Shown here: one piece after another, positions 7,101-63,214 of the stretch
Position numbering within the stretch: position 1 is the first letter of the stretch
How the letters are laid out: every line of letters begins with the position of its first letter
The notes under the pieces: generated by a model
Seen by the model: the letters and a program-made list of their open reading frames with translations, nothing else
Databases searched by the model: none
What the model was told of the DNA's origin: nothing
Program-made: the position numbers and the translations under genes
Source of the DNA: Candidatus Portnoybacteria bacterium
Lineage (GTDB): Bacteria > Patescibacteriota > Minisyncoccia > Portnoybacterales > GWB1-42-6
NCBI GenBank assembly: GCA_028688325.1
Contig: JAQTYI010000002.1
Span: 161,284 to 225,283, forward strand
Direction of reading: 5' to 3'
Length of the DNA: 64,000 nt

Positions 7101-8229
7101 GCTCGGCGGCGCGCAGGAAAATGTGCTTGATTTGGCCGCGGGACTGAGGGAAAAATACGATGTTTTGGTGGCGGCCGGGCCGGACGGCGGCGGCAAGCTT
7201 TTTAAGCAACTGGCCGACAATAAGATCAGCTTCCAGGAACTCAAGTGGCTCCGCCGCAGCGCGGCCAATCCATTTGCCGACATCGCGGGGCTGGTTGAAA
7301 TTTTCTCACTCTTGCTCAAGGAGCGCCCCGATGTTATCCATCTGCACAGCTCCAAAGCGGGCTTTTTGGGCTCGCTGGCCGGCAAGCTCGCCGGCGTCAA
7401 AGTTGTTTATACTGTCCATGGCGCGGTTTTTGAAGCGTCCTTTTCCGGGCTCGCCAGAAAATTTTTCCTGTATCTGGAAAAATTCAGCGCCCCGTTTAAA
7501 GATAAAATCATCTGCGTTTCTGCCAACGATAAAAAGCTTTGGCTAAAATACAATGCCGCTCCGGAAACCAAGTTGGCGATAGTTTACAACGGCATCGACC
7601 TTAAAACGGCTTTTTTACCCAAAGCAGAGGCGAAAGAATATCTGGCCAGCCAAAGCGCCAACTTTTTTGAAGCACTGCGCGGCTCAAACGAAAAATTAAG
7701 AATCGTCGGCACGGTTGCCAATTTCTTTCCGGAGAAGGGGTTGCCTTATCTTATCGAAGCAGCCGATGTCCTTATCAATAAAAAACAAATAAAAAATATT
7801 ATTTTTGCGATAATGGGCGAAGGGCCCCAGCGACTTCTGCTTAAAGAGATGCTGGAAGAGCGCGGATTAGCTGATAAGTTCATACTGCTTGGAACGGTTG
7901 CCAATCCTTTTAAATATTTAAAGGCCTTCGATGTTTTCACGCAACCGTCAACAAAAGAAGGATTGCCCTACGCCATTTTATGGGCCATGGCCGCGGAATT
8001 GCCGATTGTCGCCTCGCATGTCGGCGGCATTCCCGAAATGGTGAAAAACGGCGATAACGGCTTCTTGATTTTCCCGCGCGATACCGATACATTGGCCGAA
8101 AAGATCCTTGAGTTGCTGAGCAATCACGCGCTAAGCCAAAAATTCACCTTCAACTCCCGGCAAAAGATCAGGGAATTTTCCCTGGATAAAATGATAGCGG
8201 CCACGGAAAAGATATATCTGGAAAAATAA
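7066..8229 (+). CDS. Glycosyltransferase family 4
   Basis: 387 aa; GT4 motifs (EGLPYAILWAMAAELPIVASHVGGIPEMV). One of only three plus-strand genes in the window. Confidence 0.85.
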   Translation: MKKIIYIITQSELGGAQENVLDLAAGLREKYDVLVAAGPDGGGKLFKQLADNKISFQELKWLRRSAANPFADIAGLVEIFSLLLKERPDVIHLHSSKAGFLGSLAGKLAGVKVVYTVHGAVFEASFSGLARKFFLYLEKFSAPFKDKIICVSANDKKLWLKYNAAPETKLAIVYNGIDLKTAFLPKAEAKEYLASQSANFFEALRGSNEKLRIVGTVANFFPEKGLPYLIEAADVLINKKQIKNIIFAIMGEGPQRLLLKEMLEERGLADKFILLGTVANPFKYLKAFDVFTQPSTKEGLPYAILWAMAAELPIVASHVGGIPEMVKNGDNGFLIFPRDTDTLAEKILELLSNHALSQKFTFNSRQKIREFSLDKMIAATEKIYLEK

Positions 8230-8235
8230 CTGAAA

Positions 8236-8268
8236 CAAAAAACCACCTTACTCGAAGGTGTTTTTTTG
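8236..8268 (+). terminator. Rho-independent terminator after the plus-strand GT gene
   Basis: caccttactcgaaggtg hairpin followed by ttttttt, 7 nt after the stop codon. Confidence 0.65.
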
Positions 8269-8344
8269 TTTAATTCCCGAACCTCAATTTCAAATTTCCA
8301 ATAAAATCCCAAATCTCAATTATCAATTATCAATTATCAAAAAA
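8265..8344. repeat. AT-rich word-repeat intergenic element (caattatcaat words)
   Basis: ccaataaaatcccaaatctcaattatcaattatcaattatcaa; shares words with 10958-11118, 13189-13297 and 20380-20573. Confidence 0.55.
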
Positions 8345-8716
8345 TTATTTCGACTTATTGATAATCGAGGAAAAGATAAAAACAAGCTCTTGGCGTTCTT
8401 TCCATAGGGTCCGGCAATCTTGCTGATTTAATGGACAAGCTTTAGCTATCATTCTTAACCAATGCATTGTTTCTTTGGCCTCTTTCCGAGAAATCGCAAG
8501 CTTATGTTTGAAATCTTTTTTAGATTCGCCGGCATCCGCTTCCGTATAGTTTGCGCCGATACTCGTCCCCGATCTGACTATTTGGCCGATCAAAGGCCTC
8601 GTTACTTCGTCTTTTTTTATTAATCGGGCAAATTCAATAATATTTTCACCCAATAAAGCGGTTCTTTCCAAAAGGTCATATTTTTTGTTATTGGAAATTG
8701 GGATTTTATTTGACAT
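8345..8716 (-). CDS. Four-helix-bundle protein (23S rRNA intervening-sequence protein family)
   Basis: 123 aa; family motifs SGTSIGANYTEADAGESKKDFKHKLAISRKEAKETMHWLRM. Confidence 0.8.
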   Translation of the reverse strand: MSNKIPISNNKKYDLLERTALLGENIIEFARLIKKDEVTRPLIGQIVRSGTSIGANYTEADAGESKKDFKHKLAISRKEAKETMHWLRMIAKACPLNQQDCRTLWKERQELVFIFSSIINKSK

Positions 8717-8738
8717 TAAGATTTAGTCATTGGTCATT

Positions 8739-11057
8739 TCAGAGCCCCAGCCCCTTGATAAACTGCTCGCTTTGACTCTGATAGCTCGGATTAATTTGGA
8801 TCGCCTGCAGGGCCAGTTCCTTGGCTTTCTGCTTATCGCCCATTTGGGCGTAAACCGCCGCCAAACTGGCGTAAGGAGCCGCGTCGCCGGATGCCAATTT
8901 TATCCATTCCTGGTGAAGCGCGATGATGCGCGGCCAATCGCTGGTGCGCTTATAAGCACTGATCAGTTGCTTAATCTCCGTCAGCCCATATGCCCGGCCC
9001 AGCTCCTTGGCTTTTTTAATTTCCGCCTCGCCCAAATCTTTTTGACCGACGCCAATGGCAATCACGCCGTAATTCCAATGCGATAAAGACACTCTGTCGT
9101 TCAACTCCACCGCACGCTTGAATTGCGCCAAAGCATCGGCTGGCCGGCCCTGGTACATCTTTATTTGGCCGGTATAAAAATAAAGCTCTTGCCGAGTGGG
9201 ACTTAATTCCAAAGCTTTTTGCAACAGCGCATCGGCTTGCGCTAAATAATCGTTATCCGACGCGGCCGACGACAAATAAACGCTAGTCAGCATCATCATA
9301 AACCGCACATTCAGCGGTTCCTGCCCCAGGGCCCCGTTCATGCCGTCGATCGCCAATTTTGTAAACTTCTTCTTGACATCCGCCGGAATGTTGCTGTTCT
9401 GCGATAATTGCAAAGCCGCATCCTGGACGCGCATAGCGATTTCCGGCAAACCGTATGTGCCGATATCAAAAGACGCCTTAAATTGCGCCAGCGATTCATC
9501 CGCCTTGCCTTGCTGTAAAGTTTGCAAAGCGCCTATGCCTTCCATACTGGCCAGGCCCGGCTTTATGTTCACGAAATAAAGCGCGAACGCCAGAATCAGA
9601 ACCGTCGTAACTTTAAAAAAGAAATTCGGTCTTACCGGCTGAATATTAAGATTTTCCGCAGAAGGTTTCACGCTTAAAAAAACAATGAAAGCCATTATGG
9701 AATAAAACATCAGAAGCGTCACCTGCGTGTCGAACACAAAAACATTCTGAATGCCATAGGTCAACAAAACCACCGAAAAAATGGCCGCGGTAAAATAAGT
9801 TATTTTCCCTTGCCGCCAAGCCGACCATAAATACCAGAAAGCTAAAAAGATCACCGCCAAATAAGCCGCCATTCCCAGCAGGCCCGTGTTGACCAAAATA
9901 TCCAAATAAGCGTTATGCGAACGATCAAACCACGACTCCACCGGATAAAGATCGGGGTTATAAAATTGGTTAAAAACGACATAATAATTTTCCGGCCCCC
10001 AGCCAAAAAGCGGTTTTCCCAAAAAGCCCCGCCAACTCATTTGCCACGCCATTAAGCGCGTTTGGGCGGTTGTTTCGGCCAAGTTGATATGGGTAATCCG
10101 GCTCAAAGTCGGGCTATTTTGAACAAAAGCGGAATCACGGCTTAGAAAAATAAAACCGCCGACCAAGAACAGACCGATAAAAACCGCCAGAAGGTATCTT
10201 TTTAATCTTTCCGGCCGCGCAAAAGGCAGGATCGCCAGGTCTTTTTGGCGAGCAAAGATAAAAAATATAAACAGGCCCAGAACCCCGGCTCCAAAAGCCA
10301 CCAACGCGCCTCTGGTCTGGGTTTCATACATAACAAACAGATTTACCACTATCGCCAAACCGTAGAAAAGACGCCAGCCGGTTGATCTTTTTTCCAGCAT
10401 CAGCCAGAGGGCGAATAAAGCGTTAAAAAGCATATAGCCGGCCAAAAAAGAAGCGTTGCCGATGGTACCATCCAAACGCGCGCCGCCGCTGGAAGTAAAA
10501 ATGCCAGCCAGCTGTCCCAAGCCGTAAAACGCTTCTATAACGCTGGCTAAAATCGAAAAATCGAAAAATTTGTGCCAGTCCTTCTGGGTTTTGAAAATAT
10601 TAGCCGCCACGAATAAAAATCCCAGATAATGCAAGAGCGATATTACGCCGGCCATGCGCTCGTAGTTTGACCAGAAGCTGTGATATGTGTTCACTCCGAA
10701 AATCGAGCTCAATATCATCACCACAAAATATGCCGTCAGTGCTTTAAAAAGCCAGGATGAGCGGGGTCGGTAGTCGGGATTTTTTAATGCCAAAAACAGA
10801 TATAACGCGAGAATGATTTCCACAATTATTTGGAAAGACGCTTGTTTGGGGAAAATATACGGGAAAATAAAACTTCCGCCGATAAGCAAGGGCATAAAAA
10901 GACAAGCGAAAAGACCGGCTTTGATGGTTGAAACGAGCCAATTTGACTGATAGCTTTTAACCGATTTTGACATAATTTTATAAATTTCTAATTGATTACA
11001 CAAAATCCCAATGCCCAAAACCAAAACCCAAATAAAATCACGAATCTCAAATCTCAA
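8739..11057 (-). CDS. O-antigen ligase family (Wzy_C/PglL/WaaL-like) polytopic membrane protein with C-terminal TPR-repeat domain
   Basis: 772 aa; about 12 TM helices; Wzy_C signatures TQTRGALVAFGAG, FGWGPENY, DRSHNAYLDILVNTGLLG; C-terminal ~270 aa TPR-like repeats. Confidence 0.75.
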   Translation of the reverse strand: MRFEIRDFIWVLVLGIGILCNQLEIYKIMSKSVKSYQSNWLVSTIKAGLFACLFMPLLIGGSFIFPYIFPKQASFQIIVEIILALYLFLALKNPDYRPRSSWLFKALTAYFVVMILSSIFGVNTYHSFWSNYERMAGVISLLHYLGFLFVAANIFKTQKDWHKFFDFSILASVIEAFYGLGQLAGIFTSSGGARLDGTIGNASFLAGYMLFNALFALWLMLEKRSTGWRLFYGLAIVVNLFVMYETQTRGALVAFGAGVLGLFIFFIFARQKDLAILPFARPERLKRYLLAVFIGLFLVGGFIFLSRDSAFVQNSPTLSRITHINLAETTAQTRLMAWQMSWRGFLGKPLFGWGPENYYVVFNQFYNPDLYPVESWFDRSHNAYLDILVNTGLLGMAAYLAVIFLAFWYLWSAWRQGKITYFTAAIFSVVLLTYGIQNVFVFDTQVTLLMFYSIMAFIVFLSVKPSAENLNIQPVRPNFFFKVTTVLILAFALYFVNIKPGLASMEGIGALQTLQQGKADESLAQFKASFDIGTYGLPEIAMRVQDAALQLSQNSNIPADVKKKFTKLAIDGMNGALGQEPLNVRFMMMLTSVYLSSAASDNDYLAQADALLQKALELSPTRQELYFYTGQIKMYQGRPADALAQFKRAVELNDRVSLSHWNYGVIAIGVGQKDLGEAEIKKAKELGRAYGLTEIKQLISAYKRTSDWPRIIALHQEWIKLASGDAAPYASLAAVYAQMGDKQKAKELALQAIQINPSYQSQSEQFIKGLGL

Positions 11058-11118
11058 ATTATTAAAGATTTGGGGTTGGGATTTTATTGGAAATTTGTCA
11101 TTGGGATTTGCTTGAAAA
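10958..11118. repeat. AT-rich palindromic intergenic element (aaatcccaa / ttgggattt words)
   Basis: aaaatcccaatgcccaaaaccaaaacccaaataaaatc ... gatttggggttgggattttattggaaatttgtcattgggattt: inverted arms. Confidence 0.55.
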
Positions 11119-13188
11119 TTATTTTATCTGTTCCCAATACCGCCTAACTTCCTCACCCATTTTACCATCAATCTTTTGCGCTTGTGAAATGATTTCCTGC
11201 GCTTTGGCCTGTTGCCCCGATAAAGAATAGCCGGCCGCCAAGACCAGATAGGCGTCTTTTTTATTCGGCCTCAGCTCTTTAGCTCGGTTGCCCAAGTCAA
11301 TGGCCATGCTCATCCGGCCACGGTCTTGGGTCGAAAAATAAAGATCCAACCAGGCCAGCGCAAGATAATTCCCGGCTTGGTCGGGCGAGCGCTCAATCCC
11401 TTTTGCCAGCGCCGCGGCGGCGATATTATAAAAGTCCTCATTTTGCGCCAAAGCCGGGTTTTGATTGATTTTATCAATATAGTCCAAAGAGGCCTGATAT
11501 GCAATCTCGGCGGAACCGAATGCGCCCAGATCAAGCGCATCTTTCAGCAGAGGCGCCTCAAGGGCGGCATTTTCCGCGGGCAATGACAATATCTGGTTGG
11601 CCCGGTAGGCGGCCAGGAGAGGTTTGAAATTAAAAGAGTAAACGGCCGTTAGCAAATAGCCGACAACCAATAGCAAAATAATTTTTTTAAAAACACTCCA
11701 CTCGCCGCCGCGAGAAATCTCCCGCCGGCAAGGAAATATCACGCAGTCGGACTGCGTGATATTGACGATAAATGCCAGAACGAAAAACAGCATTAGATAA
11801 GAAACAAAGGAATCAAAAATAAAAAAATTCTGGACCAGATACGCGGCCAGGAGAGACAAAAAAATGACAGAAAATAAAAACGCCTTTTTTTTATTTTCTG
11901 TCATCCCGGACTCGATCCGGGATCCAGGAGCATGGATTCCGGCTTTCGCCGGAATGACAACCCTAATTAATTCATAGCTTACTATAATAAAAATACCCAA
12001 ATACGCCAACAATCCCAGCCAACCCGTTGCCACGCCGTAATCAAAAATAAAATTGTGTGCGCGGTCAGTTGCGTAGGCCTCAAATTCCGCCAGGCGCGGC
12101 GATAGATATCGGCCCGTGGCCGCCTCGAAATTTTCCGGACCAAAACCCAAAATCGGCTTGGTTTGCCAGGCCCGCCAAGCGCCTTGCCAAAGAAGCAAGC
12201 GGCTTTGGGTCGTGGCATCGCTCAGGGAAAAATGGGTTAAGCGATACAGAGTTGAATTATTTTTTACCAGGTCGTTGCCGCGGAAAAGAAACAAAGAAAT
12301 AATCAAAACAAAAATAATGGCCAAAAACACCCAGCTTGTTTTTTTTGTCATCCCGAATTTATTTTGGGATTTCCTGTCACTGGATCCTGAAACAAGTTTA
12401 GGACGACAAACTTCTTGATTAAATAAAAAAATAATTATCCCCGCCGCCAGCCCCAGCCACGCGCCGCGCGTGCCGGACAATAATAAGCTTATGGTTAATA
12501 GCAAAGAACTAATAGCAAAAAACCATTTTCGCCACCCGGCCGACGCAAAAAATAAATAACCGGCTAAAAAAAGATTAAGCAAGGCATAGCCGGCAAAAAA
12601 GCCCGCGTTGCCGATAAGACCAAAGACCCGGCCATTTGCCGGCAAAAGAATACCCCAGCCCCCCAGGCGCTGAATAAGGGCTGTGAGGGCGATAAATACG
12701 GCCACTGCCACTGAAATTCCCGCTAATTTAACCCAATCTTGCTGCCCCTTAAAAACGGCGGATAACATTAAAAACCAAGCAACAAAATGCGCTAAACCCC
12801 AAACTCCGCCTCCCCGCTCCAAACTACCCCAAAAACTATTGTAAAAATCTAAGCCAAAAATGGCAGAGAGAAGGTTGATGGCGAAAAAAACCAATACCGC
12901 GCCCGCAACGCTGGTAAACCAACTTGTGTAGCGGGCAGGCCTGGATTCCGGCTCTCCGCTCACGCTTCGGCCGAAATGACAAAATGTTTTGGGATATTTT
13001 AGCGCCAGATAAAGATAGAGCGCCGCGGCGATCTCCACCAAAATCCTGAACGCGAAAACTTTTGGCGCGGTATAAGGAAAAATAAAAGAAGCGCTGGCAA
13101 AAAGCGGCGCGGCCAGGCAAGCAGCCAGTAAAATTTTTATCAACCCGAAAATTTTATTATCTGTCTTAGAAAAATCTGAAATTTTCAA
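11119..13188 (-). CDS. O-antigen ligase family (Wzy_C/PglL-like) membrane protein with C-terminal TPR domain; paralog of 8739-11057 carrying three in-frame palindromic-element insertions
   Basis: 689 aa; SGTRGAWLGLAAG, GFGPENF, DRAHNFIFDYGVATGWLG motifs; TPR-like tail. Three extra peptide segments relative to the paralog coincide with palindromic-element copies at 11899-11960, 12346-12392 and 12938-12983. Confidence 0.75.
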   Translation of the reverse strand: MKISDFSKTDNKIFGLIKILLAACLAAPLFASASFIFPYTAPKVFAFRILVEIAAALYLYLALKYPKTFCHFGRSVSGEPESRPARYTSWFTSVAGAVLVFFAINLLSAIFGLDFYNSFWGSLERGGGVWGLAHFVAWFLMLSAVFKGQQDWVKLAGISVAVAVFIALTALIQRLGGWGILLPANGRVFGLIGNAGFFAGYALLNLFLAGYLFFASAGWRKWFFAISSLLLTISLLLSGTRGAWLGLAAGIIIFLFNQEVCRPKLVSGSSDRKSQNKFGMTKKTSWVFLAIIFVLIISLFLFRGNDLVKNNSTLYRLTHFSLSDATTQSRLLLWQGAWRAWQTKPILGFGPENFEAATGRYLSPRLAEFEAYATDRAHNFIFDYGVATGWLGLLAYLGIFIIVSYELIRVVIPAKAGIHAPGSRIESGMTENKKKAFLFSVIFLSLLAAYLVQNFFIFDSFVSYLMLFFVLAFIVNITQSDCVIFPCRREISRGGEWSVFKKIILLLVVGYLLTAVYSFNFKPLLAAYRANQILSLPAENAALEAPLLKDALDLGAFGSAEIAYQASLDYIDKINQNPALAQNEDFYNIAAAALAKGIERSPDQAGNYLALAWLDLYFSTQDRGRMSMAIDLGNRAKELRPNKKDAYLVLAAGYSLSGQQAKAQEIISQAQKIDGKMGEEVRRYWEQIK
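11899..11960. mobile_element. Miniature palindromic element (TGTCATCCCGG...CCGGAATGACAA family) inserted in-frame in a CDS
   Basis: tgtcatcccggactcgatccgggatccaggagcatggattccggctttcgccggaatgacaa; translated in the host ORF as VIPAKAGIHAPGSRIESGMTE; absent from the paralog. Confidence 0.7.
12346..12392. mobile_element. Degenerate copy of the TGTCATCCCG element, in-frame in the CDS
   Basis: ttgtcatcccgaatttattttgggatttcctgtcactggatcctga; host translation ...SGSSDRKSQNKFGMTKKT... Confidence 0.5.
12938..12983. mobile_element. Partial copy (right half) of the palindromic element, in-frame in the CDS
   Basis: ctggattccggctctccgctcacgcttcggccgaaatgacaaaa; host translation CHFGRSVSGEPESRP. Confidence 0.5.
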
Positions 13189-13297
13189 TTTTCAATGATC
13201 AATTATCAATGAATTTTCAATGATTAAATTTTCAATTGATAATTTGAAAATTGGTGATTGATTGAAAATTGTAAATTGATAATTGAAAATTACTTTA
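13189..13297. repeat. AT-rich ~110-bp imperfect palindrome built of ttttcaat / caattatcaat words, centred on caattg
   Basis: aattttcaatgatcaattatcaatgaattttcaatgattaaattttcaattgataatttgaaaattggtgattgattgaaaattgtaaattgataattgaaaatt; left and right arms are reverse complements with a few mismatches. Confidence 0.7.
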
Positions 13298-13990
13298 TTA
13301 CTGCTTCGCTTCCAACTCCGCCAAGTCCGCTTTGGCGGCCGCGTTATCGGGCAATAGACGCACCAACTCCTTGTACCACTGGATAGCTTTATTCGTTTGG
13401 TTCGTATCCCGGAAATAACCGGCCAGCGGACCGATCAGATTGGCATTATCGGGAAATTTTTGCAAGGCCTCCAGCATCGTGGTTTCATACATCGCTTCTT
13501 GCCCGGGCAAACGATAGCGGTAGATATCCGCCATCATTAAATAAAAATTAATATCGTTCGGTTCATTGGCAATAGCTATCTTTATCATTTCCAGCCCTTT
13601 TTGCGGCTGGTTCAAAAAATTAGCGTAGAGATCCGCCAAATTGACGAACGGCGGCGAACTTTTAGGCCGAAGCTGCGCCGCATATTGCCAAACATCCCGC
13701 GCGCCTTCATAATCGCCCACACCTTTTTTCAATATCCCCAAAAAAAGCCAACCGGTAAAATCCTCCTGATCGGCCCGCAAGCGGACCAAAGCTTTATTAA
13801 AATTTTCCTGATAGATTCGCGCTTCTCCAGCGGAGAGATTTTTATCTTTTATTTCAAAAATTAATAATTTTTCCGGAGTCAAAACAGCTTCTTTTTTAAA
13901 AATATATCCTTGTTGATAGGCGAAAAAAACGCCGGCAGATAAAACTAATGCGGTCATGACGCCACAAATAATATAATATTTTTTAGACAT
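13298..13990 (-). CDS. Membrane-anchored TPR-repeat protein
   Basis: ORF-track frame 13298-14125; the first 45 codons overlap a palindromic-element copy, so the likely start is the internal Met (MSKKYYIICGVMTALVLSAGVFFAY...) at 13990. One N-terminal TM helix, then TPR-like repeats. Confidence 0.55.
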   Translation of the reverse strand: MSKKYYIICGVMTALVLSAGVFFAYQQGYIFKKEAVLTPEKLLIFEIKDKNLSAGEARIYQENFNKALVRLRADQEDFTGWLFLGILKKGVGDYEGARDVWQYAAQLRPKSSPPFVNLADLYANFLNQPQKGLEMIKIAIANEPNDINFYLMMADIYRYRLPGQEAMYETTMLEALQKFPDNANLIGPLAGYFRDTNQTNKAIQWYKELVRLLPDNAAAKADLAELEAKQ

Positions 13991-14009
13991 AATAAAAATT
14001 ATGCCATAC

Positions 14010-14072
14010 CGGATTAAATCCGGCATCCAGGCCCTAAATTCTGGATCCCGCGGCAAGCCCGGGATGACAAAA
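14010..14072. mobile_element. Palindromic element copy (TGTCATCCCGGGCTTGCC... family), reverse orientation
   Basis: gccggattaaatccggcatccaggccctaaattctggatcccgcggcaagcccgggatgacaaaaa. Confidence 0.6.
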
Positions 14073-17200: not shown

Positions 17201-17779
17201 ACCGGCCGCCGGAGTGTCAGAAGCCAAAGAAACCGTTACGGTTCCGGCCACACCCGGGGTGACAGTGGTTGAAGGAGAAGCAGAAGTTCCGCCAGTGATA
17301 TCAGCACCTGGGGTGTAGACATCGCGGTCAGTGGTATTTATCTGGTAAACAGAATCCCAATCATAACCGGCGGCGGTGAACGCTTCGGCGGTCATGTTGA
17401 CCCACTGTTTCGAACCGTTATCGCTGTTTGGAACCGGAACCAGGGAATAAACTTTAGGATCGCCGACGGCTCTCACTAAAGTAGAAGTCGTGAACTGGTC
17501 CATTTGCGCTTGAGTCACGGTCTTTATTCTGCTCCAGCTCAAGTGTTGATAACTGTTGAAAACGGACGGGCTCAAGACCAATCTTTTGAAGTTCTTGGCA
17601 CCCATGTATTTCACAATATAAACATCAAGAGTATTGGCAACTCTGATGGTGTCGCCTTCAAGAATGCCGGCAACAGCAGCGGAAGCAGCCAAAGGAGCCA
17701 AGGCCGCAACGCCAGACAACCACAAGATAGTGGTCACGCTGGTTGAAACGGAAATGACTTTTTTGAATGTTTTACTCAT
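14210..17779 (-). CDS. Large secreted Thr/Ser/Gly/Ala-rich repeat protein (candidate S-layer/surface adhesin-like protein)
   Basis: 1189 aa; N-terminal signal peptide (MSKTFKKVISVSTSVTTILWLSGVAALAPLAASAA); remainder low-complexity beta-rich repeated modules dominated by T, S, G, A, V; no enzymatic motifs. Confidence 0.7.
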   Translation of the reverse strand: MSKTFKKVISVSTSVTTILWLSGVAALAPLAASAAVAGILEGDTIRVANTLDVYIVKYMGAKNFKRLVLSPSVFNSYQHLSWSRIKTVTQAQMDQFTTSTLVRAVGDPKVYSLVPVPNSDNGSKQWVNMTAEAFTAAGYDWDSVYQINTTDRDVYTPGADITGGTSASPSTTVTPGVAGTVTVSLASDTPAAGIAPLKAARVPFTKFALTAGATDVTVTAIKAQRTGLAADTALSSVALIDNTTNLQIGLNQTLNADHQITVRESFTIPANTTKYYTLAANMPSTSQSAAGQTANLALVSVETTATVSGVLPITGNSQTINETLSIGSYTVASGSLNAATSTNKEVGTNDFNFSGVKFTAGSIEDLTITSIRFNQSGSAASSDLGSVVVSDGTTNYATTVSSDGKYFTASFGTAGITIAKGLSKEFTVKGNILSGSARTISFDIYRTTDVVIKGNVYGYYLTPDANTTYPWNTAGNPVFNANDITVGTGSLRIDKSSTGAPAANITKGATGVLLGSFDFVVAGEPINVASMILKIATSSLGVGNITNMTLTKADGTILAGPVDAAYASAGESKATFTGTVTFPVGTTQVLVKGNLATTLTNDGTIAVGFNTPGDKITSITGGTTGNSITATPATQVTGNTMTVKGGSLVVSVSGTPVAQEVIRGIVGYTFANLLFDATASGEDVKVTVVEVQDTIGAAGVATDISTLQLWDGTTALNTGSNVTTLAGTADAANQTTITLDSAGVIIPKGTSKTLALKGNIAGNATTGSTSTHAWGLKASPTITATGVSTTLTITATGVTVAQAGQAMTIAAGGQYSVVLDSSTPTGKLIAGNTTGNTMTVLKFKATAEQINVTKVMLALTNASSSANDLSKVYIYDGATLLASGTLGTGDAVGLTNNASTTFTLSPALVLAPNVDKIVTIKADIAPILTTNTVADAGHQIAIDYYGSTSTTYNMGTGQSSGASIANYSSTTAQTSAYIYKSVPTVSTVALDTNTLTNGTMDLYRFKVSADAKGDIDLVKFTFTIATTSQSVLGAHLSIKDITLVDITESAQVTLNATTTNTQFYADMGGVIDIYTYAAAATWGTATTTRTVSAGTSRTFALRGTIAGAGSGASVTTYLMGDAAAPTSMSAGMVTFDNAELDASDDFIWSDVSSASHDTTPVGSSITDWTNGYLVSGLPSSNLTAQTLSK

Positions 17780-19640: not shown

Positions 19641-19848
19641 TACTAAATAAGACGAAAAAACAGCAAAAGTATTACAGCTATCTTAGAATTCCCGTGTTTA
19701 TACCATAAAATCAACCCGACCGAGATGTAAAATGCAAATTTCTAATTGTTCTAATTTCTAATTGACCTAATTAATGGCCAATGTCTAATGTTTAAATTTT
19801 AGAAATTGGGATTTGATTAGAAATTAGGTTAATTAGGTAATTAGAAAT
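19641..19848. repeat. AT-rich palindromic word-repeat element (copy 2 of the ttctaatt/aattagaa family)
   Basis: aaatttctaattgttctaatttctaattgacctaattaatggccaatgtctaatgtttaaattttagaaattgggatttgattagaaattaggttaattaggtaattagaaattt; about 85% identical to 1900-2009. Confidence 0.7.
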
Positions 19849-20379: not shown

Positions 20380-20573
20380 GTTTCCAAAATTTGCTGCAAA
20401 TTAGCTTAAATAAAGTTTTCAATTTTCAATGCTCAATTTTTCACCCTTCGGGTGACCACCCGTAGGGTGGCAATCAATTATCAAATTTTCATTGAACATT
20501 GGTAATTGAAAATTCATTGATAATTGGAAATTGATAATTTTTAATCTATATAGTTATGCAAAAATAGTGGTTG
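20380..20573. repeat. AT-rich word-repeat element containing two short GC hairpins
   Basis: ttttcaattttcaatgctcaatttttcacccttcgggtgaccacccgtagggtggcaatcaattatcaaattttcattgaacattggtaattgaaaattcattgataattggaaattgataattt; hairpins cacccttcgggtg and ccacccgtagggtgg; may also act as the GalU terminator. Confidence 0.6.
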
Positions 20574-38989: not shown

Positions 38990-39027
38990 TTGTCATCCCG
39001 GGCTTGACCCGGGATCCAGGCCCTCCC
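38990..39027. mobile_element. Palindromic element copy (left half)
   Basis: ttgtcatcccgggcttgacccgggatccaggccctcc. Confidence 0.6.
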
Positions 39028-41955: not shown

Positions 41956-42024
41956 TTTTCTGCTCCCAAGCTCTGCGCCTTCGGCGTTTTTATTATTCTG
42001 ACATTAATTTTATTTTTTATTTTG

Positions 42025-42095: not shown

Positions 42096-42110
42096 ATGTT
42101 TCACCGAATA

Positions 42111-43303: not shown

Positions 43304-43335
43304 TTCTGGATCCCGGGTCAAGCCCGGGATGACAA
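43304..43335. mobile_element. Palindromic element copy (right half)
   Basis: tctggatcccgggtcaagcccgggatgacaattgg. Confidence 0.6.
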
Positions 43336-46695: not shown

Positions 46696-46793
46696 TTGTC
46701 ATCCCGAACGCAGTGAGGGATCTCTCGCGTATGCGAGATTGTTGCGCGGGTCGCTTCGCTCCCGCGAGATCCCTCGTTTCACTCAGGATGACA
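46696..46793. mobile_element. Second palindromic element family (TTGTCATCC(C/T)GAACG.AGTGAGGGATC...GATCCCTCGTTTCACTCAGGATGACA), full copy
   Basis: ttgtcatcccgaacgcagtgagggatctctcgcgtatgcgagattgttgcgcgggtcgcttcgctcccgcgagatccctcgtttcactcaggatgacatt; perfect long terminal inverted repeats. Confidence 0.7.
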
Positions 46794-46808
46794 TTATTTT
46801 CAATAATG

Positions 46809-48605
46809 TCACTTTTTCAGCACCTTCAAAAACACTTCCTGCGGAATATTGACGCTTCCGCGGTCGCGCATTTTCTTTTTCCCTTTCTTCTGCTTATCCA
46901 ATAATTTATTTTTTCGCGTCACATCTCCGCCGTAAAGTTTGGCCGTAACATCTTTGCGCCGGGCGGCTAAGTCCTCGCGCGCCACGATCTTTCCGCCAAC
47001 CGCCGCCTGCAAGGCCACCGCAAACATCTGCGGCGGCAATATCTCTTTTAGCTTCTCAACGATAGCTCGGCCTTCGCCTGCGGCCTTGTGGCGCGGAATT
47101 ATGCGCGCGAACGCCTCAATGGGATCTTGCGCCACCAGAATATCCAAGCGCACCAAGTCATCCTTGCGCCAGCCCAAAAGCTCATAACCCATAGAAGCAT
47201 AGCCAGAAGTGGCGCTTTTTAATTTGTCATAAAAATCTACGATGATCTCCCGCAGCGGCGCCTCATAGGAAATCACCACGCGCTGCGCGCCAAGATACTG
47301 CGTGTCCAGATAAGCGCCACCGGTCGATTGCAACAACTTCATAATAACCCCCAGATATTCGCTGGGCCCGATTACTTCCAATTTGACCCAGGGCTCGCGA
47401 ATTTCGTCGATGACGCTGGGGTCGGGCAGCTTTTGCGGAGAATAAATAACAAGCTCCTCCCTGTTCTTTTTTTTCACCCGATAGACCACGCTGGGCGTTG
47501 TCACGATCAGATCCAGATTATATTCCCGGCGCAGGCGTTCGGAAACTATTTCCAAATGCAGCATGCCCAAAAATCCGCACTTAAATCCCCGTCCCAAAGC
47601 ATCGGAACTTTCTGGCTCAAAGACCAGTGCCGCGTCGCTCAGTTTCAGCTTGGACAGCGCGTCGCGAAGCTGGTTGTAATCCTGCGCCTCCTGCTTTTCC
47701 AGCACCGCCGGGTAAAAACTGGCAAAGACCATCGGCTTTGGTTCTTTGTATCCGGGCAGCTGTTCAACATCGAAAGAGCCGGTAACGGTCATTGTATCGC
47801 CAACGCGGCATAGCGCCACCTCTTTGAGGCCTGTGGCTATATATCCTATTTCGCCGGCGCGCAATTCCTCTGCCGCCTTTAACGCTGGCGTGAAAATGCC
47901 GACTTCTATCGCCTCAACTTTCGCACCGCTGGCCATAAACATTATTTTATCTCCGCGTTTGATCCGGCCGTCGACTATCCGGACATATGCTAAAACACCC
48001 TTATAAGCGTCGTAATTGGAATCAAAAACCAAGGCGCGAAAAGGCCTATCCGCATCGATCTTGGGCGGCGCCACTTTTTTTATCACCGTCTGCAGCAATT
48101 CTTCAACACCAACGCCTTCCTTGCCGGAAATTTTGTAAATTTGTGCGTTTTGGCCCAGCAGTTCTTTTATCTCGTCTTCCACCATCTCAACCCGCGCTCC
48201 CGGCAAATCAATTTTATTTATCGCCGGCACAATGGTTAAGCCCTGCTGCTGCGCCAGATACAGGTTTGCCAGGGTTTGCGCCTGCACACCCTTGGTCGCA
48301 TCCACCAGCAAAATAGCGCCTTCAACCGCGGCCAGAGAACGGGAAACCTCGTAAGAAAAATCCACATGCCCGGGAGTATCTATGAGATTGAGCATATAAT
48401 CCCGCCCTTCAAAGCGATAACTCATTCGCACCGGTTGGAGCTTGATGGTGATGCCGCGTTCCCGCTCCAGTTCCATGGTATCCAAAAATTGCTCCTTCAT
48501 CTTCCTTTTTTCGATGGTGCCGGTCAATTCCAAAAAACGGTCCGCCAAAGTGGATTTGCCATGGTCAATATGAGCTACGATGCAGAAGTTCCTGATGTTA
48601 TTCAT
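46809..48605 (-). CDS. lepA: Translation elongation factor 4 (LepA)
   Basis: 598 aa; N-terminus MNNIRNFCIVAHIDHGKSTLADRFLELTG, GTPase G-motifs, LepA-specific C-terminal domain. Confidence 0.95.
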   Translation of the reverse strand: MNNIRNFCIVAHIDHGKSTLADRFLELTGTIEKRKMKEQFLDTMELERERGITIKLQPVRMSYRFEGRDYMLNLIDTPGHVDFSYEVSRSLAAVEGAILLVDATKGVQAQTLANLYLAQQQGLTIVPAINKIDLPGARVEMVEDEIKELLGQNAQIYKISGKEGVGVEELLQTVIKKVAPPKIDADRPFRALVFDSNYDAYKGVLAYVRIVDGRIKRGDKIMFMASGAKVEAIEVGIFTPALKAAEELRAGEIGYIATGLKEVALCRVGDTMTVTGSFDVEQLPGYKEPKPMVFASFYPAVLEKQEAQDYNQLRDALSKLKLSDAALVFEPESSDALGRGFKCGFLGMLHLEIVSERLRREYNLDLIVTTPSVVYRVKKKNREELVIYSPQKLPDPSVIDEIREPWVKLEVIGPSEYLGVIMKLLQSTGGAYLDTQYLGAQRVVISYEAPLREIIVDFYDKLKSATSGYASMGYELLGWRKDDLVRLDILVAQDPIEAFARIIPRHKAAGEGRAIVEKLKEILPPQMFAVALQAAVGGKIVAREDLAARRKDVTAKLYGGDVTRKNKLLDKQKKGKKKMRDRGSVNIPQEVFLKVLKK

Positions 48606-51147: not shown

Positions 51148-51211
51148 TTGTCATCCTGAACGAAGTGAGGGATCTTTTATTTTTAGATTCTTCGCTTCGC
51201 TCAGAATGACA
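51148..51211. mobile_element. Second-family palindromic element, short copy
   Basis: ttgtcatcctgaacgaagtgagggatcttttatttttagattcttcgcttcgctcagaatgacaaa. Confidence 0.65.
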
Positions 51212-51275
51212 AACTATGTTCACTTACTCACACCTCAACCCTCTCATTTTATCACCAAATCCGCAAAAGATAAAA

Positions 51276-51337: not shown

Positions 51338-52057
51338 TCAGGAAACCGCCTGGCGAGAACGCAAATTGTCGCTCGCATCGCCGGGACCGTTCCAACCGAC
51401 CCCGAACCCGGCGCCGCCCCAGTCGGCGCTCGGCACATGGCCATCGCCATAGCGCGAACCCGTGCACAGCGTCCAGTTGATGATATCCAGATGCTTGCCG
51501 GTTTCCTTGAAGAACTTGGGCTCATAGACAAGCCGCTCTTCCAGGGTGATGCCGGGGATGTTTTTTTGCTTAAGGTCGTTGGCGGAGAGATTTTTCAGCT
51601 CCTCGTCGGCTTCAACACGGTCGCGAACCCAAACGGCATAGGCGCCGTTTTTGGCCGAGCGGTCGGAGGTGACGATTTTATCCAGATCTTCGTCTGTATA
51701 TTTCCAACTCGGAAACAGCTGCGCGCACTTGTCGTAGAGACGCTGAGCGGTCATACCTGGGATCAGGATGAGCAGGCGGTCAAAGCCGGCTCGCTTGGCC
51801 GGAATGACCAAATCGGTGAAATCCGCCTCTATGCCGAAGACATCGCGGTAGAATGCTTGCCAGTCGGCGAGCAGGTCGAGGTACGGATTTGCGGCCGAAA
51901 ATATTTTCCGCACTTGCGCCGTTAGTTTTCCTTTGTTGCCGACCCAGCTTTCAGCCGTTTCAAAAGTCATGCCAGTTGGCACCCCCTGCACCAGAGCCGA
52001 AATGATATCCTTCATCTGGCCCGGTGTCATCGTTCGGACAGTCCGATTATTTTTCAT
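51338..52057 (-). CDS. Hypothetical protein encoded in a compositionally atypical (GC-rich) segment; probably horizontally acquired
   Basis: 239 aa; strong RBS (AAGGGAGG) before the ATG; GC visibly higher than neighbours (all six frames open: 51244-51531, 51216-51452 etc. are shadow ORFs); no recognisable domain. Confidence 0.5.
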   Translation of the reverse strand: MKNNRTVRTMTPGQMKDIISALVQGVPTGMTFETAESWVGNKGKLTAQVRKIFSAANPYLDLLADWQAFYRDVFGIEADFTDLVIPAKRAGFDRLLILIPGMTAQRLYDKCAQLFPSWKYTDEDLDKIVTSDRSAKNGAYAVWVRDRVEADEELKNLSANDLKQKNIPGITLEERLVYEPKFFKETGKHLDIINWTLCTGSRYGDGHVPSADWGGAGFGVGWNGPGDASDNLRSRQAVS

Positions 52058-59475: not shown

Positions 59476-62400
59476 TTATTCCACTGTCACATTTTCTTGC
59501 GTTACTGTCGCGCCGTCTTTAATGTCCAAAATTGGCCCATTATAATATAAATAGCTAGTCGTGTCGCGGCTGTATCCGCCATACTTGAATTTAATAAATT
59601 TCAAAGTTGCCTGGCTGCCGCCGGCAAATATAATATTTCTCCATTCGCCCCTTGCAAGATTCGGCTCGCTGACCAGACCGTCGTTGTTGGTGTCACCGCC
59701 TGAAGAATCATCCTTAAAAGATGTAAAAATAATTAAGGTGGAAGACGACTGGCCGTCAGCTACCAAATTTCCGTCAATTTTCAAGGATGGATAAAGCGGG
59801 CAGGCCGCCTTAATCACTGCACCCGGCTCAATGGTCAAAGTGGAACTGGCGGTTACTGTTGGATATTGTGTCCCGATATCAGACCGCAGAATGTAGACAA
59901 TTTCTCGCTGCCAAGTCGTATTTTTTGATAAAACCGTGCGCTCGCTGACATTAACGCCGTTGAAAGAGTTGTTAATCAAATTGTTGCCGGAAAAAACCGG
60001 ATAGGCGCTTTCCAGCCAAACAGCGAATTGAAAACCGGAAATATCATTTGACTCGATCGCCGGCCGGTTTTGATTTTCAATCCTTATCGCCGTGCCGGTA
60101 TTTGCCGAGTTTCTGAAGGTATTGTTTTTAACGATTGGTGCAGACGAGCCAGTAAGATATAAAGCGGTGTCGTTATCCAAAAATTGGGAATCGGACAAAG
60201 TCAAATCGGAGCCGGTTAGCTCCAGGCCGCGGCCTTGAATATTGCGGAAAATGCAGTTATTAATATCTACTTTGGCGCCGTTAACCGCAACCGCCGGAAA
60301 ATTATTGTTGAACGGCGATCGGTACCCGCCGTATTCAAAAGTTACAAAAGACAGCTCGGAATTCAAGGAATCAGGTGCAAAATACAATCCCGTTCCCCAG
60401 TCGCCCGCTTGCGGCGCGACGCTGTTTGAGGTGAATAAAATCGGATTACCGCTCGTGCCTACGGCTTTTACGGCCCCCTTAACATATAAGGAATAAAGGG
60501 TCGCGCTTAATGGCTTTATTGTCGCGCCGGGCTCAATGGTTAAAGTGGCGCCCGCCGACACCATGGGAGATGCCTCATTGGAAGAATATAAAACATAAGG
60601 AGAACCCGCCTTGCCCCAAACGGTATTTTTGGAAATAATCGTATTGTCTCTTACCATGCTGCCGGCGGAAACATTTAGAGCATCGTTTTGGGCATTCGGA
60701 GTGCCGCCGGCAGCCGAAGTGCCCCAGGCCAAAATAAAATCGGAATAAACGCTATTATAATTTATCCTTTCCAAGGAATTGCCATTATCATTGGTGCTCC
60801 TCCAGCTATTTGAATAATTAACTCTGTCAACTATGCTGCCGGCGGCGTTTTTTAGAATTAAATCGTTGCTTAAATTAGTCAAAGATAATGAAGCGGCGCC
60901 ATTTAGAGTTAAGCGAAGATGAGCTTGATCGGACGATGGGATTGCATAATAAGCACCGTCGTAAATTGATGGCGTGGAAGTGCTTTCTGTTCTGTCCGCC
61001 AATAACGCAAAACCGCCAGAAGCAATGACCGTTGAAGAACCGTTATGAATCGTATCGGCGATGACAACATGTTCGCGGCCGTCGGAAACAAATTTCCAGT
61101 TAGCCAAATCTATCGCTATCGGGGAACGATTGTACAGCTCGACATATTCGTAATAGCTGTCCGACCCGGGATTGGGGTCATACATTATCTCGTTAAAAAT
61201 TATCGGTTTTATCGAAACCGGCGCCTGAATTTCTTGCCAAACGCTCGCTTGGCCGGCTGAGTCAACCGCCCGGGCGCGGAAATAATAAACGATATTGTCG
61301 AGATTTGACTGAAAAGATTTTGAAGTGGTGATTGTGGCCATGGCCCAGCTCTGCCAGGCACCCTGTTCGCCTATTTTATATTGCACATCATAATAGCCGA
61401 TATCCGTTGATGAACTGCTCCAGTTTACAGTAAAATCTATATTCATCAGATCATAGCCGGAAAGATCAATGGTTGCTTCCGGCGCAAAATCAATTCTCCA
61501 AGAATATTCGGTTGAAGTGGCGTTGCGGTTGCCGGCCGCGTCCGCGGCTCCAACCTTAAAAGCATGGCTGCCTTCGGCCAAATTGATATATTCTTGCGGC
61601 GAGGAACAATCGGTTGAGCTCGCGTTATCCAACTGGCAGGAAAAAGTTGAATCGCTTTCCGAGGAATTGAATTCAAAAATCGCCGTTGTTGTAGATGCTA
61701 TGCTTTCCGGCTTAACCGTAATCATTGTTTCCGGCGCCGTAGTATCCGGCGTTGAAGTTGCGGTTGAAGTGGCTGTCGGCGACGAAGATAGTGTTGACGA
61801 AAAATTGGACCCGCCGCCGGAAACAGCAACGGAAGGACTCGGATCCGGCATTTGCGCCCGGCTTGGAACCATTTCTTCGATGATCGCAGACGGAATTTCG
61901 CTGTCCTGAGGCGTTGTTTCTTCAATTATCCCCCCTTCTGCTTTTTCCTGCGCCGCAACAGCGCTTGGCGGCAATTGCGCCGCAGCTTTTTCTTCGGCCA
62001 CAATCGTGTTTAACGGCAAAGACGCGGCCGGCGGCAACGATTCCGGCAATACCGGCAATACTGAATTTTTCGGCGCCTCGCCATCCCCGCCAACAGGCGG
62101 GGCCGCGCTCGGCGCCGCATCCACTATAACCCCAGCATACAGCGGCCCGACCTTTGTCAATGACTGATTGGCTTTGTCTTTTAATTTTTGCCACCAGCTT
62201 TTATTATCATATTCCCGCTTGGTCTTTTCCGCTTCATCAAAAAATAATTTCACCGCCCCCGCGCCATAAGATACGGCTTTGGGAGCAAGAAGAGAAAAAT
62301 AGTCGGAGTGGACAGATATTGTATTTGATAAATCCATTAAGTAATGGGTATCACCAAATTTAGATTTTTTATATATTACTAAACAAATTCTATTATCTCC

Positions 62401-63129
62401 AATCTCCTTCTCTATGCATTCATAATTTACACCGTCTTTTATCTTTTCGACTTTTTTTAAACCCAATAAGTAATTTTCCCTAATTGTGTCTCTACTCAAA
62501 AAATTATTACTTGAATAACTCGCCAAATCATCAAAAGCCATATTAATATCACTAATCACTACAGGTACCACATTAAAATTTATGGACGAGCTAATTTTGT
62601 CAACCGCCCATTTTTCATAAGGATCTCCCTCCGGATGCGCGTCCAATCGCGTATGTGCCGGCACAGTTGCATCTTCCAATAAATGTACCACATGTCCAAG
62701 CGCGAAAAATGCTTCTTGGTTATTGCCTTTTACATAGCTATCAATCGCCTTCTGCCAGGTCTGGTTTCCCCCGCTGAGTATAAAAGACGATAACGCTTGG
62801 TAATTAGGGCTTTTCGCCCAATTCTTGGAGTTCATCATACTGCCAAGGCCCATATCGCTTTCCGGATTATAAAAATGATTCAGCCAGCGCGGCGCTAAAT
62901 CTTCTTTTATGCTCCCTTGTTTTAACCATTCTATTTCTTCATTGCTCAATTTGCGGTCAAAATTGGCATTATAAATTTTAGCTACATTATCCGTTAAAGA
63001 CGGGTGCGTAATATCATCATTATACGAAAAAGCTCGGTTGCAAAACGCAACCGAGCCGGCAAATATTGTCGTTAAAATTAATAGAGCTAAAACTTCCTTT
63101 TTATTCGAGACCATCACCCTTGATGTCAT
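59476..63129 (-). CDS. Giant secreted multidomain protein: N-terminal zinc-dependent phospholipase C-like domain, Pro-rich linker, FN3/Ig-like region, lamin-tail domain (LTD) and C-terminal right-handed beta-helix repeats
   Basis: 1217 aa; signal peptide; HVVHLLEDATVPAHTR (PLC-like Zn-site); IIFNEIMYDPNPGSDSYYEYVELYN (LTD signature); repeated NNxF/N-rich parallel beta-helix turns (NNTFRNSANTGTAIRIENQ, SGNNLINNSFNGVNV). Confidence 0.7.
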   Translation of the reverse strand: MTSRVMVSNKKEVLALLILTTIFAGSVAFCNRAFSYNDDITHPSLTDNVAKIYNANFDRKLSNEEIEWLKQGSIKEDLAPRWLNHFYNPESDMGLGSMMNSKNWAKSPNYQALSSFILSGGNQTWQKAIDSYVKGNNQEAFFALGHVVHLLEDATVPAHTRLDAHPEGDPYEKWAVDKISSSINFNVVPVVISDINMAFDDLASYSSNNFLSRDTIRENYLLGLKKVEKIKDGVNYECIEKEIGDNRICLVIYKKSKFGDTHYLMDLSNTISVHSDYFSLLAPKAVSYGAGAVKLFFDEAEKTKREYDNKSWWQKLKDKANQSLTKVGPLYAGVIVDAAPSAAPPVGGDGEAPKNSVLPVLPESLPPAASLPLNTIVAEEKAAAQLPPSAVAAQEKAEGGIIEETTPQDSEIPSAIIEEMVPSRAQMPDPSPSVAVSGGGSNFSSTLSSSPTATSTATSTPDTTAPETMITVKPESIASTTTAIFEFNSSESDSTFSCQLDNASSTDCSSPQEYINLAEGSHAFKVGAADAAGNRNATSTEYSWRIDFAPEATIDLSGYDLMNIDFTVNWSSSSTDIGYYDVQYKIGEQGAWQSWAMATITTSKSFQSNLDNIVYYFRARAVDSAGQASVWQEIQAPVSIKPIIFNEIMYDPNPGSDSYYEYVELYNRSPIAIDLANWKFVSDGREHVVIADTIHNGSSTVIASGGFALLADRTESTSTPSIYDGAYYAIPSSDQAHLRLTLNGAASLSLTNLSNDLILKNAAGSIVDRVNYSNSWRSTNDNGNSLERINYNSVYSDFILAWGTSAAGGTPNAQNDALNVSAGSMVRDNTIISKNTVWGKAGSPYVLYSSNEASPMVSAGATLTIEPGATIKPLSATLYSLYVKGAVKAVGTSGNPILFTSNSVAPQAGDWGTGLYFAPDSLNSELSFVTFEYGGYRSPFNNNFPAVAVNGAKVDINNCIFRNIQGRGLELTGSDLTLSDSQFLDNDTALYLTGSSAPIVKNNTFRNSANTGTAIRIENQNRPAIESNDISGFQFAVWLESAYPVFSGNNLINNSFNGVNVSERTVLSKNTTWQREIVYILRSDIGTQYPTVTASSTLTIEPGAVIKAACPLYPSLKIDGNLVADGQSSSTLIIFTSFKDDSSGGDTNNDGLVSEPNLARGEWRNIIFAGGSQATLKFIKFKYGGYSRDTTSYLYYNGPILDIKDGATVTQENVTVE

Positions 63130-63214
63130 CCCGGGCTTGACCCGGGATCCATGCTCTGGATTCCCGCTTTCGCTCGCCTCGCTGGAGCTTCGGCGAAGCG
63201 GGCGGGAATGACAA
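63124..63214. mobile_element. Palindromic element, longest copy (first family)
   Basis: tgtcatcccgggcttgacccgggatccatgctctggattcccgctttcgctcgcctcgctggagcttcggcgaagcgggcgggaatgacaaa. Confidence 0.7.

Follow-up and report, generated by a model that had tools for sequence, protein, structure and literature searches.

Rickettsia palindromic elements (RPEs) are reported in Ogata et al. (2000, 2002). They comprise ten families of palindromic elements of about 150 bp that insert in frame into Rickettsia genes (review PMC10969869). Here we describe a comparable case in an uncultured, ultra-small bacterium of the candidate phyla radiation (CPR), namely in a stretch of 64,000 nt (hereafter the window) from Candidatus Portnoybacteria bacterium, assembly GCA_028688325.1, contig JAQTYI010000002.1, positions 161,284-225,283 of the forward strand. 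The open reading frame (ORF) 11119..13188 of the window encodes a WaaL/Wzy_C-type membrane protein (the host protein), and three segments of it, called inserts A, B, and C in the order of the protein, are copies of a miniature palindromic element that is also found between the genes of the window. We consider it likely that the host protein is functional, that three of its short interhelical loops each received such an element, and that the copies seen inside the gene are those that survived selection.

A second group of described elements is of key importance for the comparison. Ssn-related motifs (SRM) are hairpins that are bound and cut solely as single-stranded DNA (ssDNA) by small, single-domain GIY-YIG nucleases, the Ssn nucleases, and they typically flank the ssn gene (PMC11893778, Nat Commun 2025). 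The Neisseria Transformation Sequence (NTS), CGTCATTCCCGCGMAVGCGGGAATCYRG, includes the dRS3 repeat ATTCCC-N8-GGGAAT; only 2% of the NTS in N. meningitidis lie inside genes, and in Neisseria the repeats are clustered beside genes for membrane proteins and influence transformation (PMC11893778). The activity demonstrated for Ssn is cleavage of ssDNA and not transposition, and the SRM-rich genomes include Rickettsia, while the paper mentions neither RPEs nor Patescibacteria (PMC11893778).

Comparison of all copies in the window shows that the unit is a hairpin module of about 30 nt, 5'-TGTCATYCC-stem-loop-stem-GGRATCCAG, found singly or as two closely spaced inverted copies that together span 61-97 nt and have the outer ends TGTCAT...ATGACA. 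The element thus has the terminal inverted repeats of a miniature inverted-repeat transposable element (MITE), TGTCATYCC...GGRATGACA, entire modules being inverted copies of each other. The window has 9 occurrences of the terminal 11-mer TGTCATCCCGG with one mismatch allowed (0.70 expected) and 11 of CCGGAATGACA (0.95 expected), an enrichment of about 12-fold over shuffles, none of which (0/100 for each) came as high. Repeat finding related positions 11899-11932 to copies at 14002, 38991, 43301, and 63124, and positions 12345-12372 to copies at 46696 and 51148. A covariance model with an 8-bp stem (R1), built on 60 aligned modules from the window and other genomes and searched with filters off, recognizes 13 modules in the window at E<=0.014, three within the host gene and the others intergenic. 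In the underlying alignment, TGTCAT is invariant 5' of the stem and hence gives the module an orientation, and changes on both sides are seen at 5 of the 8 stem pairs, in an alignment that had been selected for stems. Perfect stems of at least 8 bp are present in 123 of the 155 distinct loose-pattern matches listed, from many phyla, where the pattern itself imposed only about 5 pairs. Intact copies fold as ssDNA with z scores of -4.3 to -5.3.

The module is an NTS/dRS3-type SRM. It shares with SRM, NTS, and dRS3 the oriented head GTCAT, the hairpin ATTCC/ATCCC-stem-loop-GGAAT/GGGAT, and the tail with a C after the palindrome. The published pattern, HGTCWYN(0-2)YYVSBRHN(0-5)WNVSBRGN(0-2)RNCYNB, has six matches in the window against a mean of 0.13 in 100 dinucleotide-preserving shuffles (about 46-fold). 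Both halves of insert C (11899-11927 on the plus and 11932-11959 on the minus strand) fit it, and three copies between genes, at 38991, 43306, and 63124, do so too.

The three inserts differ in how well they are preserved. The halves of insert C match R1 at E 1e-8 and 3e-8, and its ssDNA fold (-18.3 kcal/mol, z -4.6) is like that of the intergenic copies, whereas inserts B (z -0.46) and A (z +0.35) fold no better than shuffles; we therefore regard C as intact and A and B as relics. Neither A nor B fits the strict SRM pattern. Insert B, with the ends TGTCATCCC...GGACGACA (termini TGTCATCC/GGACGACA), gives two adjacent, inverted, weak R1 matches (E 0.12 and 0.16), and over its full 62 nt it aligns to the core of an element from a Rickettsia endosymbiont (locus L096, 627-688) with a score that none of 500 shuffles reached. 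(Here and below, L numbers such as L001 denote DNA loci and P numbers such as P0002 denote proteins.) Insert A may be followed on its 3' side, to about 12915, by a remnant of its partner module (PARYTSWFTS; compare P0004). Read on the minus strand, inserts C and B give VIPAKAGIHAPGSRIESGMT and CRPKLVSGSSDRKSQNKFGMT, and insert A reads as CHFGRSVSGEPESRP; the peptides across the insert junctions include VIPAKAGIHAPGSR, SQNKFGMTK, and SVSGEPESR. An earlier note on this DNA, made from the sequence by a model, had placed three element-related segments in the 689-aa ORF without a break in its frame, and all three are located as it said. The end that it gave for insert B, 12392, is too short, because this insert is a complete decayed pair that reaches 12408. 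The coordinates of all features are collected in Table 1.

Table 1. Positions of the host gene, the element copies, and related features (window positions unless a locus is named).
Feature	Position	Strand	Basis or description
Host gene, WaaL/Wzy_C-fold polytopic membrane protein with C-terminal TPR-like helical domain	11119..13188	-	689 aa, ORF intact
Neighboring paralog, Wzy_C and TPR repeats	8739..11057	-	772 aa, Pfam; outgroup
Insert C, intact 61-nt inverted module pair	11899..11959 (R1 span 11898-11960)	.	SRM pattern, R1, fold
Insert B, decayed 63-nt inverted pair, GTCATCCYGAA...TTCAGGATC module subfamily	12346..12408	.	Termini, alignment to L096
Insert A, single decayed module with long loop	12938..12983	-	R1 match 12941-12982, E 2.8e-4
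Intergenic inverted pair, upstream of TPR gene	14001..14070	.	R1 14041-14070 E 1.5e-5; 14001-14030 E 0.014
Intergenic single module TTGTCATCCCGGGCTTGACCCGGGATCCAG	38990..39019	+	R1 E 8.9e-9; SRM pattern; no overlapping ORF
Intergenic single module, 100% identical to 38990 copy, between ftsE and ftsX	43306..43335	-	Repeat finding, SRM pattern, R1
Intergenic 97-nt inverted pair, CHPERSEGS-type subfamily, directly 3' of gene 46809..48605	46696..46794	.	R1 E 5e-6, 3e-5; fold z -4.3
Intergenic 63-nt inverted pair	51148..51212	.	R1 E 3e-6, 5e-5; fold z -5.3
Intergenic 90-nt inverted pair	63123..63214	.	R1 E 6e-8, 1.5e-6; fold z -4.6
CCCCCTTTTTAAAGGGGG palindrome copies	L002 10206, 10464, 11731; L001 833; L130 1480
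In-frame SRM module/doublet elsewhere	L026 6950-7038		TGT (tRNA-guanine transglycosylase), Parcubacteria MAG
In-frame SRM module/doublet elsewhere	L115 2364-2391		PrmC, Patescibacteria MAG
In-frame SRM module/doublet elsewhere	L039 1508-1535		N6/N4 DNA methylase, Nanoarchaeota MAG
In-frame SRM module/doublet elsewhere	L042 1689-1767		TruB, Pseudomonadota MAG
MAG, metagenome-assembled genome.

The inserts are insertions and are absent from the nearest relatives. A homolog search with the host protein gave 112 relatives, 58 of them orthologs at E<=1e-90, and all that carry a name are assigned to the Parcubacteria group or Candidatus Portnoybacteria. In the majority of orthologs the loops are minimal, counting 5, 12-13, and 2 residues at sites A, B, and C where the query has 23, 27, and 24. 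In a rough neighbor-joining tree of ungapped columns, minimal loops at the three sites are the state of the nearest relatives (P0003, P0005, P0007, P0011, and P0016), of the basal orthologs, and of the paralog, and the empty sites are visible in a codon-level comparison with six syntenic orthologs. The left junction and module of insert A recur in P0004 and P0026, which retain the full pair. The earlier note had based the absence of the inserts on the neighboring paralog, which is 30% identical to the host gene and has no module match in the R1 scan. At site B the paralog carries a loop of its own of similar length and is thus a poor reference; the insertion is clear from true orthologs, which are minimal at A, B, and C. 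An independent, 99.5% identical ENA assembly (L125) likewise has a gene of 2070 nt with the inserts, which excludes an assembly artefact. The two versions of the host gene differ by nine substitutions, five synonymous and four non-synonymous, and none of these falls within the inserts.

The same evidence bears on the idea, which the earlier note had itself raised against its claim, that the extra segments are ancestral or arose from faulty assembly, or, in a related form, that they are convergent low-complexity loops. It draws on the weak R1 matches of insert B and on the sharing of sites A and C with some orthologs that are not sisters of the query. For inserts C and A it is refuted by the resemblance that their DNA bears to intergenic copies (E 1e-8 to 3e-4), and for B the full-length alignment to the Rickettsia element speaks against it, as do the minimal loops of the basal and nearest orthologs and the agreement of the second assembly. 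We consider the chance that this explanation is right to be negligible.

The host gene is intact. Its 689 codons run without interruption, Pfam Wzy_C (PF04932) matches at E 1.9e-17 (63.9 bits against a cut-off of 31.7), and an AlphaFold model built on an 82-sequence alignment has a mean predicted local distance difference test score (pLDDT) of 91 and a predicted TM-score (pTM) of 0.92. The best Foldseek match of this model is the WaaL O-antigen ligase 7TPG (7tpg_B; E 1.1e-6, target TM-score 0.62), and TPR proteins are the structural matches of the C-terminal domain. All family-invariant residues are kept, and the large conserved loop between transmembrane helices TM9 and TM10 (residues 302-379) holds the invariant R330, D375, and H378. 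The earlier note had nonetheless left room for a gene in decay, and a pseudogene that gathers junk insertions would indeed go well with three to four insertions in a single gene and with the share of non-synonymous changes (4/9) between the strains. Such a pseudogene would not be expected to have an unbroken frame, intact invariant residues, and a confident model in which disorder is confined to the inserts; moreover, orthologs with still more inserts are likewise intact, and the synteny of the locus is kept across seven loci. Decay is therefore very improbable in our judgment.

The model also places the inserts. Its only low-pLDDT coils are residues ~70-92, 261-271, 412-430, and 481-498, of which the first three coincide with inserts A, B, and C and the last is a fourth variable loop (loop D). 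Insert A lies between helices 41-64 and 93-110 (pLDDT 54-55), insert B between helices 241-260 and 272-301, and insert C between helices 380-411 and 431-454 (pLDDT 58-63). In the predicted structure the inserts are thus located in loops, which agrees with the suggestion of the earlier note that the protein tolerates them there and, as in RPEs, makes the added peptide compatible with the fold of the host protein. All four variable loops probably face the cytoplasm, opposite the conserved catalytic side, to judge from helix parity, the position of the WaaL-type TM9-TM10 loop, and the Lys/Arg content of the loops (positive-inside rule). The inserts may be read as a natural map of permissive sites in a WaaL-type membrane protein.

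Insertion into this gene family has occurred more than once. A single element is present in P0002 (site C), P0006 contains three doublets, and site A is occupied by a doublet in both P0004 and P0026. The insert at site C is of the VIPAKAGI type in the query and P0002 and of the CHSERS type in P0006, and such differences in element subfamily, frame, and codon position within one loop across orthologs mean that several events must have been independent. In the five distinct syntenic loci that contain any modules at E<=0.01, the ligase ortholog holds 11 of the 23 modules and the other 12 are intergenic, with none in other coding sequence, while the ligase makes up about 10% of the sequence examined. 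The ligase gene acts as a sink that collects such inserts repeatedly. Loops of many ligase orthologs are filled by another family of small palindromes, CCCCCTTTTTAAAGGGGG, whose in-frame reading is PLFKGG(L/R)GG; the P0006 gene has three copies, encoding PLFKGG, and the window has none.

The phenomenon extends well beyond the ligases. A module pattern scan with one genome per species gave at least 120 loci, and those listed come from Alpha-, Beta-, and Gammaproteobacteria, Nitrospirota, Omnitrophota, Planctomycetota, many CPR lineages, and a Nanoarchaeota MAG, as well as from Coxiellaceae, cultured Bradyrhizobium strains, and a Rickettsia endosymbiont. Modules or doublets are read in frame in several unrelated genes (Table 1). 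In-frame palindromic insertions, which have been treated as a peculiarity of Rickettsia, therefore occur in the CPR, in a DPANN archaeon, and in other bacteria. This also carries a warning for annotation, as the peptides VIPAKAGIQ, CHSREGGNP, and RLRGNDK in proteins from MAGs are derived from elements.

How might such a pattern arise? The element would multiply through the genome, probably via single-stranded intermediates and with the help of a nuclease or recombinase encoded elsewhere. Selection would presumably remove most insertions into genes, and the genic copies that survive would be those that add a multiple of three bases, are free of stops in the frame concerned, and sit in a permissive loop. 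If the short loops of the ligase are unusually permissive, the gene and its orthologs would have collected inserts repeatedly. Afterward, the DNA hairpin would decay (as in A and B), and the encoded peptide, rich in Gly, Ser, Pro, Lys, and Arg, would stay behind as a disordered linker, the inserts then being neutral passengers. The open frames of the elements fit such survivorship rather than design: there are 2-4 of 6 per element against 1.6-2.9 expected in shuffles, which is not clearly an enrichment, and the elements show no sign of being built for translation.

Several observations weigh against this account, the near-random number of open frames being one of them. Sites A and C are common to orthologs that are not monophyletic in the rough tree, which may reflect shared ancestry followed by exact loss, recombination, or targeted re-insertion. 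The elements have flanks rich in T on the 5' side and in A on the 3' side, with no consistent direct repeat that would mark a target-site duplication. The in-gene copies vary in their length modulo 3; the remainder is 1 in most of the in-frame copies, which is suggestive of a 2-bp duplication, and the exceptions make this inconsistent. Neither motif searches, phmmer, nor a purpose-built hidden Markov model found a GIY-YIG or ssn gene in the window or the ortholog loci, and no transposase was seen in either; Pfam scans of ten proteins in the element-bearing part of the window returned housekeeping functions only. Finally, insert C and a hairpin in loop D keep their structure in P0002, for which selection on hairpins or repeated insertion fits better than simple neutral decay.

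This last point leads to a different explanation, in which the in-gene hairpins are selected for a role in DNA or RNA, either as Ssn cleavage sites that gate recombination or transformation of this surface-glycan locus, in the way of the NTS around Neisseria genes, or as sites of transcriptional or translational pausing. In its folding, insert C is on a par with the intergenic copies. In P0002, which is 57% identical to the host protein, a module sits at the very codon of insert C with a stem that differs on both arms (CCGGC/GCCGG vs CCCGC/GCGGG). The loop D hairpin (11738-11766) is not an SRM module; it is a perfect 13-bp stem, AATATCACGCAGT-ccg-ACTGCGTGATATT, that encodes ITQSDCVIF, folds with z -7.6, and is retained in P0002 (L001) with a compensatory change from A:T to T:A. 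The concentration of modules in the ligase orthologs and the behavior of the NTS beside membrane-protein genes (PMC11893778) would also suit a selected role. Against it stand inserts A and B, which have no structure left, the nearest orthologs, which manage without any insert, and the lack of an ssn gene nearby; the differences between the stems are equally well explained by independent insertion of copies from different subfamilies. On balance, we consider selection on the hairpins unlikely. As a side observation, loop D of the L001 ortholog ends in SRNDE, which resembles a decayed module end.

The enzyme behind the survivorship account can be named by association only, and the association points to Ssn. 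Small GIY-YIG ORFs, confirmed by Pfam, lie beside or between modules in several loci of the pattern scan. Modules 92% identical to that of the window flank a 79-aa GIY-YIG gene on a Sphingobium plasmid, and Sphingomonas and Sphingobium plasmids have stretches of 26 nt that are 100% identical to the window module. An Ssn-type GIY-YIG gene is flanked by modules in a contig of an uncultured gammaproteobacterium (L080), and modules adjoin such genes in contigs from Omnitrophota (L057) and Methylotenera (L024). In a Candidatus Wildermuthbacteria MAG (L126), six modules surround the gene (8001-8300) of an annotated Ssn-type protein (P0169), so the SRM-ssn-SRM arrangement does exist in the CPR. The GIY-YIG genes of L122 and L012 were set aside as evidence, being UPF0213-like or truncated and not beside modules. 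An autonomous insertion sequence (IS) with matching termini was not found in the window; elsewhere, only a small GIY-YIG gene of the ssn type lies between such termini.

The insertions could also be real and yet be mobilized by something else, namely a Y1 transposase (IS200/IS605 or RAYT-like) acting on doublets of the REPIN type, or recombination between copies. A doublet of two inverted hairpins is the very architecture of a REPIN, the known activity of Ssn is cleavage (PMC11893778), and the window has no ssn gene. Conversely, neither a Y1 transposase nor a RAYT was seen beside any window copy, GIY-YIG genes flank or adjoin modules in six unrelated loci (one of them from the CPR), and the conserved 5' head is GTCAT and not the GTAG of REP sequences. 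We consider a mobilizer other than Ssn possible but less likely. One observation concerns gene annotation: the stop-to-stop ORFs of the Ssn-type genes at L080 1616-2032 and L024 6147-6476 run upstream into the flanking module (module-derived starts VIPAQAGIQKH-MTYYVYIL and CHSRVGGNLGKVN-MLPCVYIM), which probably leads to mis-called start codons.

The link to RPEs is provided by a Rickettsia endosymbiont of Polydrusus tereticollis (L096), whose IleS gene (862-4272) contains two elements in frame, each with SRM modules as its bounds. The curated RPE4 model (TIGR03777) is matched by one of them at E 9e-8, above the cut-off, and the match lies exactly between and over two modules, so at least RPE4 is an SRM-module doublet. 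This bears out the parallel with RPEs that the earlier note had drawn. Further doublets are present in the same 8 kb. With this IleS as positive control, the curated RPE models (e.g., TIGR01045 for RPE1 and TIGR03777 for RPE4) gave no match at E<=10, whether for the host protein, for eight orthologs, or for the insert peptides taken alone. A search of Rfam at gathering thresholds returned three tRNAs only and no match for the elements, and literature searches on the characteristic insert peptides and on CPR and MITE found no match and no relevant paper, respectively. By sequence, then, the window elements appear to show RPE-like behavior by a related element and not membership of a named RPE family. 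Since RPEs, SRM hairpins, and Ssn nucleases are linked in this way, there is now a candidate, and testable, mobilizing activity behind RPEs. A bolder reading would make the SRM doublets one pan-prokaryotic class of protein-coding palindromes, spread by Ssn and with RPEs as the best-known branch, in which the intact ligase hairpins, insert C and that of loop D, are kept as sites of single-strand cleavage or of structure through which recombination, transformation, or expression of the locus is controlled. We regard this as distinctly unlikely; if true, it would explain why the ligase orthologs keep gaining and retaining modules.

Some further features of the window deserve mention. The element has at least six loci outside coding sequence. 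The TPR gene beside the pair at 14001-14070 really starts at an internal ATG near 13990 and is called as 230 aa in L125, and the 5' end of the listed ORF 59476..63129 overlaps the pair at 63123-63214 by 6 bases. Two candidates were rejected as copies: 39727-39737 is native ABC-F sequence, and 17238-17264 (an SRM-pattern match in a 1189-aa gene) has no covariance-model support. The segment 51751-51808 (VIPAKRAGF...PGMT) likewise has no support from the model. It lies in ORF 51338..52057 (a 239-aa protein), where the peptide VIPAKRAGFDRLLILIPGMT and the DNA GTCATTCCGGCCAAGCGAGCCGG...GGTATGAC resemble an old in-frame doublet. A weak module-like hairpin, TGTCATTCCCGCCTCTTCGGCGGGATATTC (42104-42136, R1 E 1.5), stands directly upstream of tRNA-Gln (42024-42095, minus strand). 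There is another MITE-like element with two 100% identical copies of 152 nt (43105-43256 and 44049-44200) and terminal inverted repeats of ~30 nt (CCGCCCGACGATAAAATTTTGATAAATTCG...); ftsE is preceded by one of these copies and ftsX by the other. A 123-aa ORF (8345-8716, minus strand) lies between a glycosyltransferase gene and the ligase paralog; the syntenic locus L130 has, at another position (8730-9095), a 121-aa gene for a four-helix bundle of the '23S rRNA intervening sequence protein' type (PF05635), and if the window ORF were of this type, it would itself be mobile. The AT-rich spacers between the glycan-cluster genes (8280-8346, 11035-11121, 13180-13303, 19725-19826, 20413-20558, and 1900-2015) contain degenerate short repeats, TTGAAAATTGATAATTG and AAATTGGGATTT, in part as long imperfect palindromes.

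How, then, does the locus compare with the known systems? With the WaaL/Wzy_C family, the host protein has in common the PF04932 domain, the WaaL fold, and the conserved TM9-TM10 loop with its Arg, Asp, and His; it differs by an additional C-terminal transmembrane helix and TPR-like domain and by loops that are enlarged by relics of mobile elements. To our knowledge, CPR bacteria have no classical lipopolysaccharide. Like repetitive extragenic palindromes (REPs), REPIN doublets, and MITEs, the window elements are short and non-autonomous, with inverted termini, hairpin doublets, many intergenic copies, and no coding capacity. REPIN doublets are mobilized by RAYT transposases, whereas neither a RAYT nor an IS parent nor a clear target-site duplication was seen for the window elements. 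Their head is GTCAT where that of REPs is GTAG, and they persist in frame inside a gene, whereas REPs are extragenic almost by definition. From SRM and NTS as described, the window modules differ in being mostly tight inverted doublets of 61-97 nt, in having three of nine loci inside one coding sequence and read in frame, and in the lack of an ssn gene in the window.

RPEs remain the closest parallel. Like them, the window element inserts palindromes in frame into genes without destroying them, here as three inserts in one intact ORF, and its peptides lie where the fold tolerates them; insert B, moreover, can be aligned along 62 nt with the core of an element of the Rickettsia locus other than the RPE4 one. 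The window copies (61-97 nt) fall short of the RPE size of ~100-150 bp (PMC10969869), and their host is a CPR bacterium. Lastly, the in-frame copies related to the window element are concentrated in one gene family, whereas RPEs are spread over many genes.

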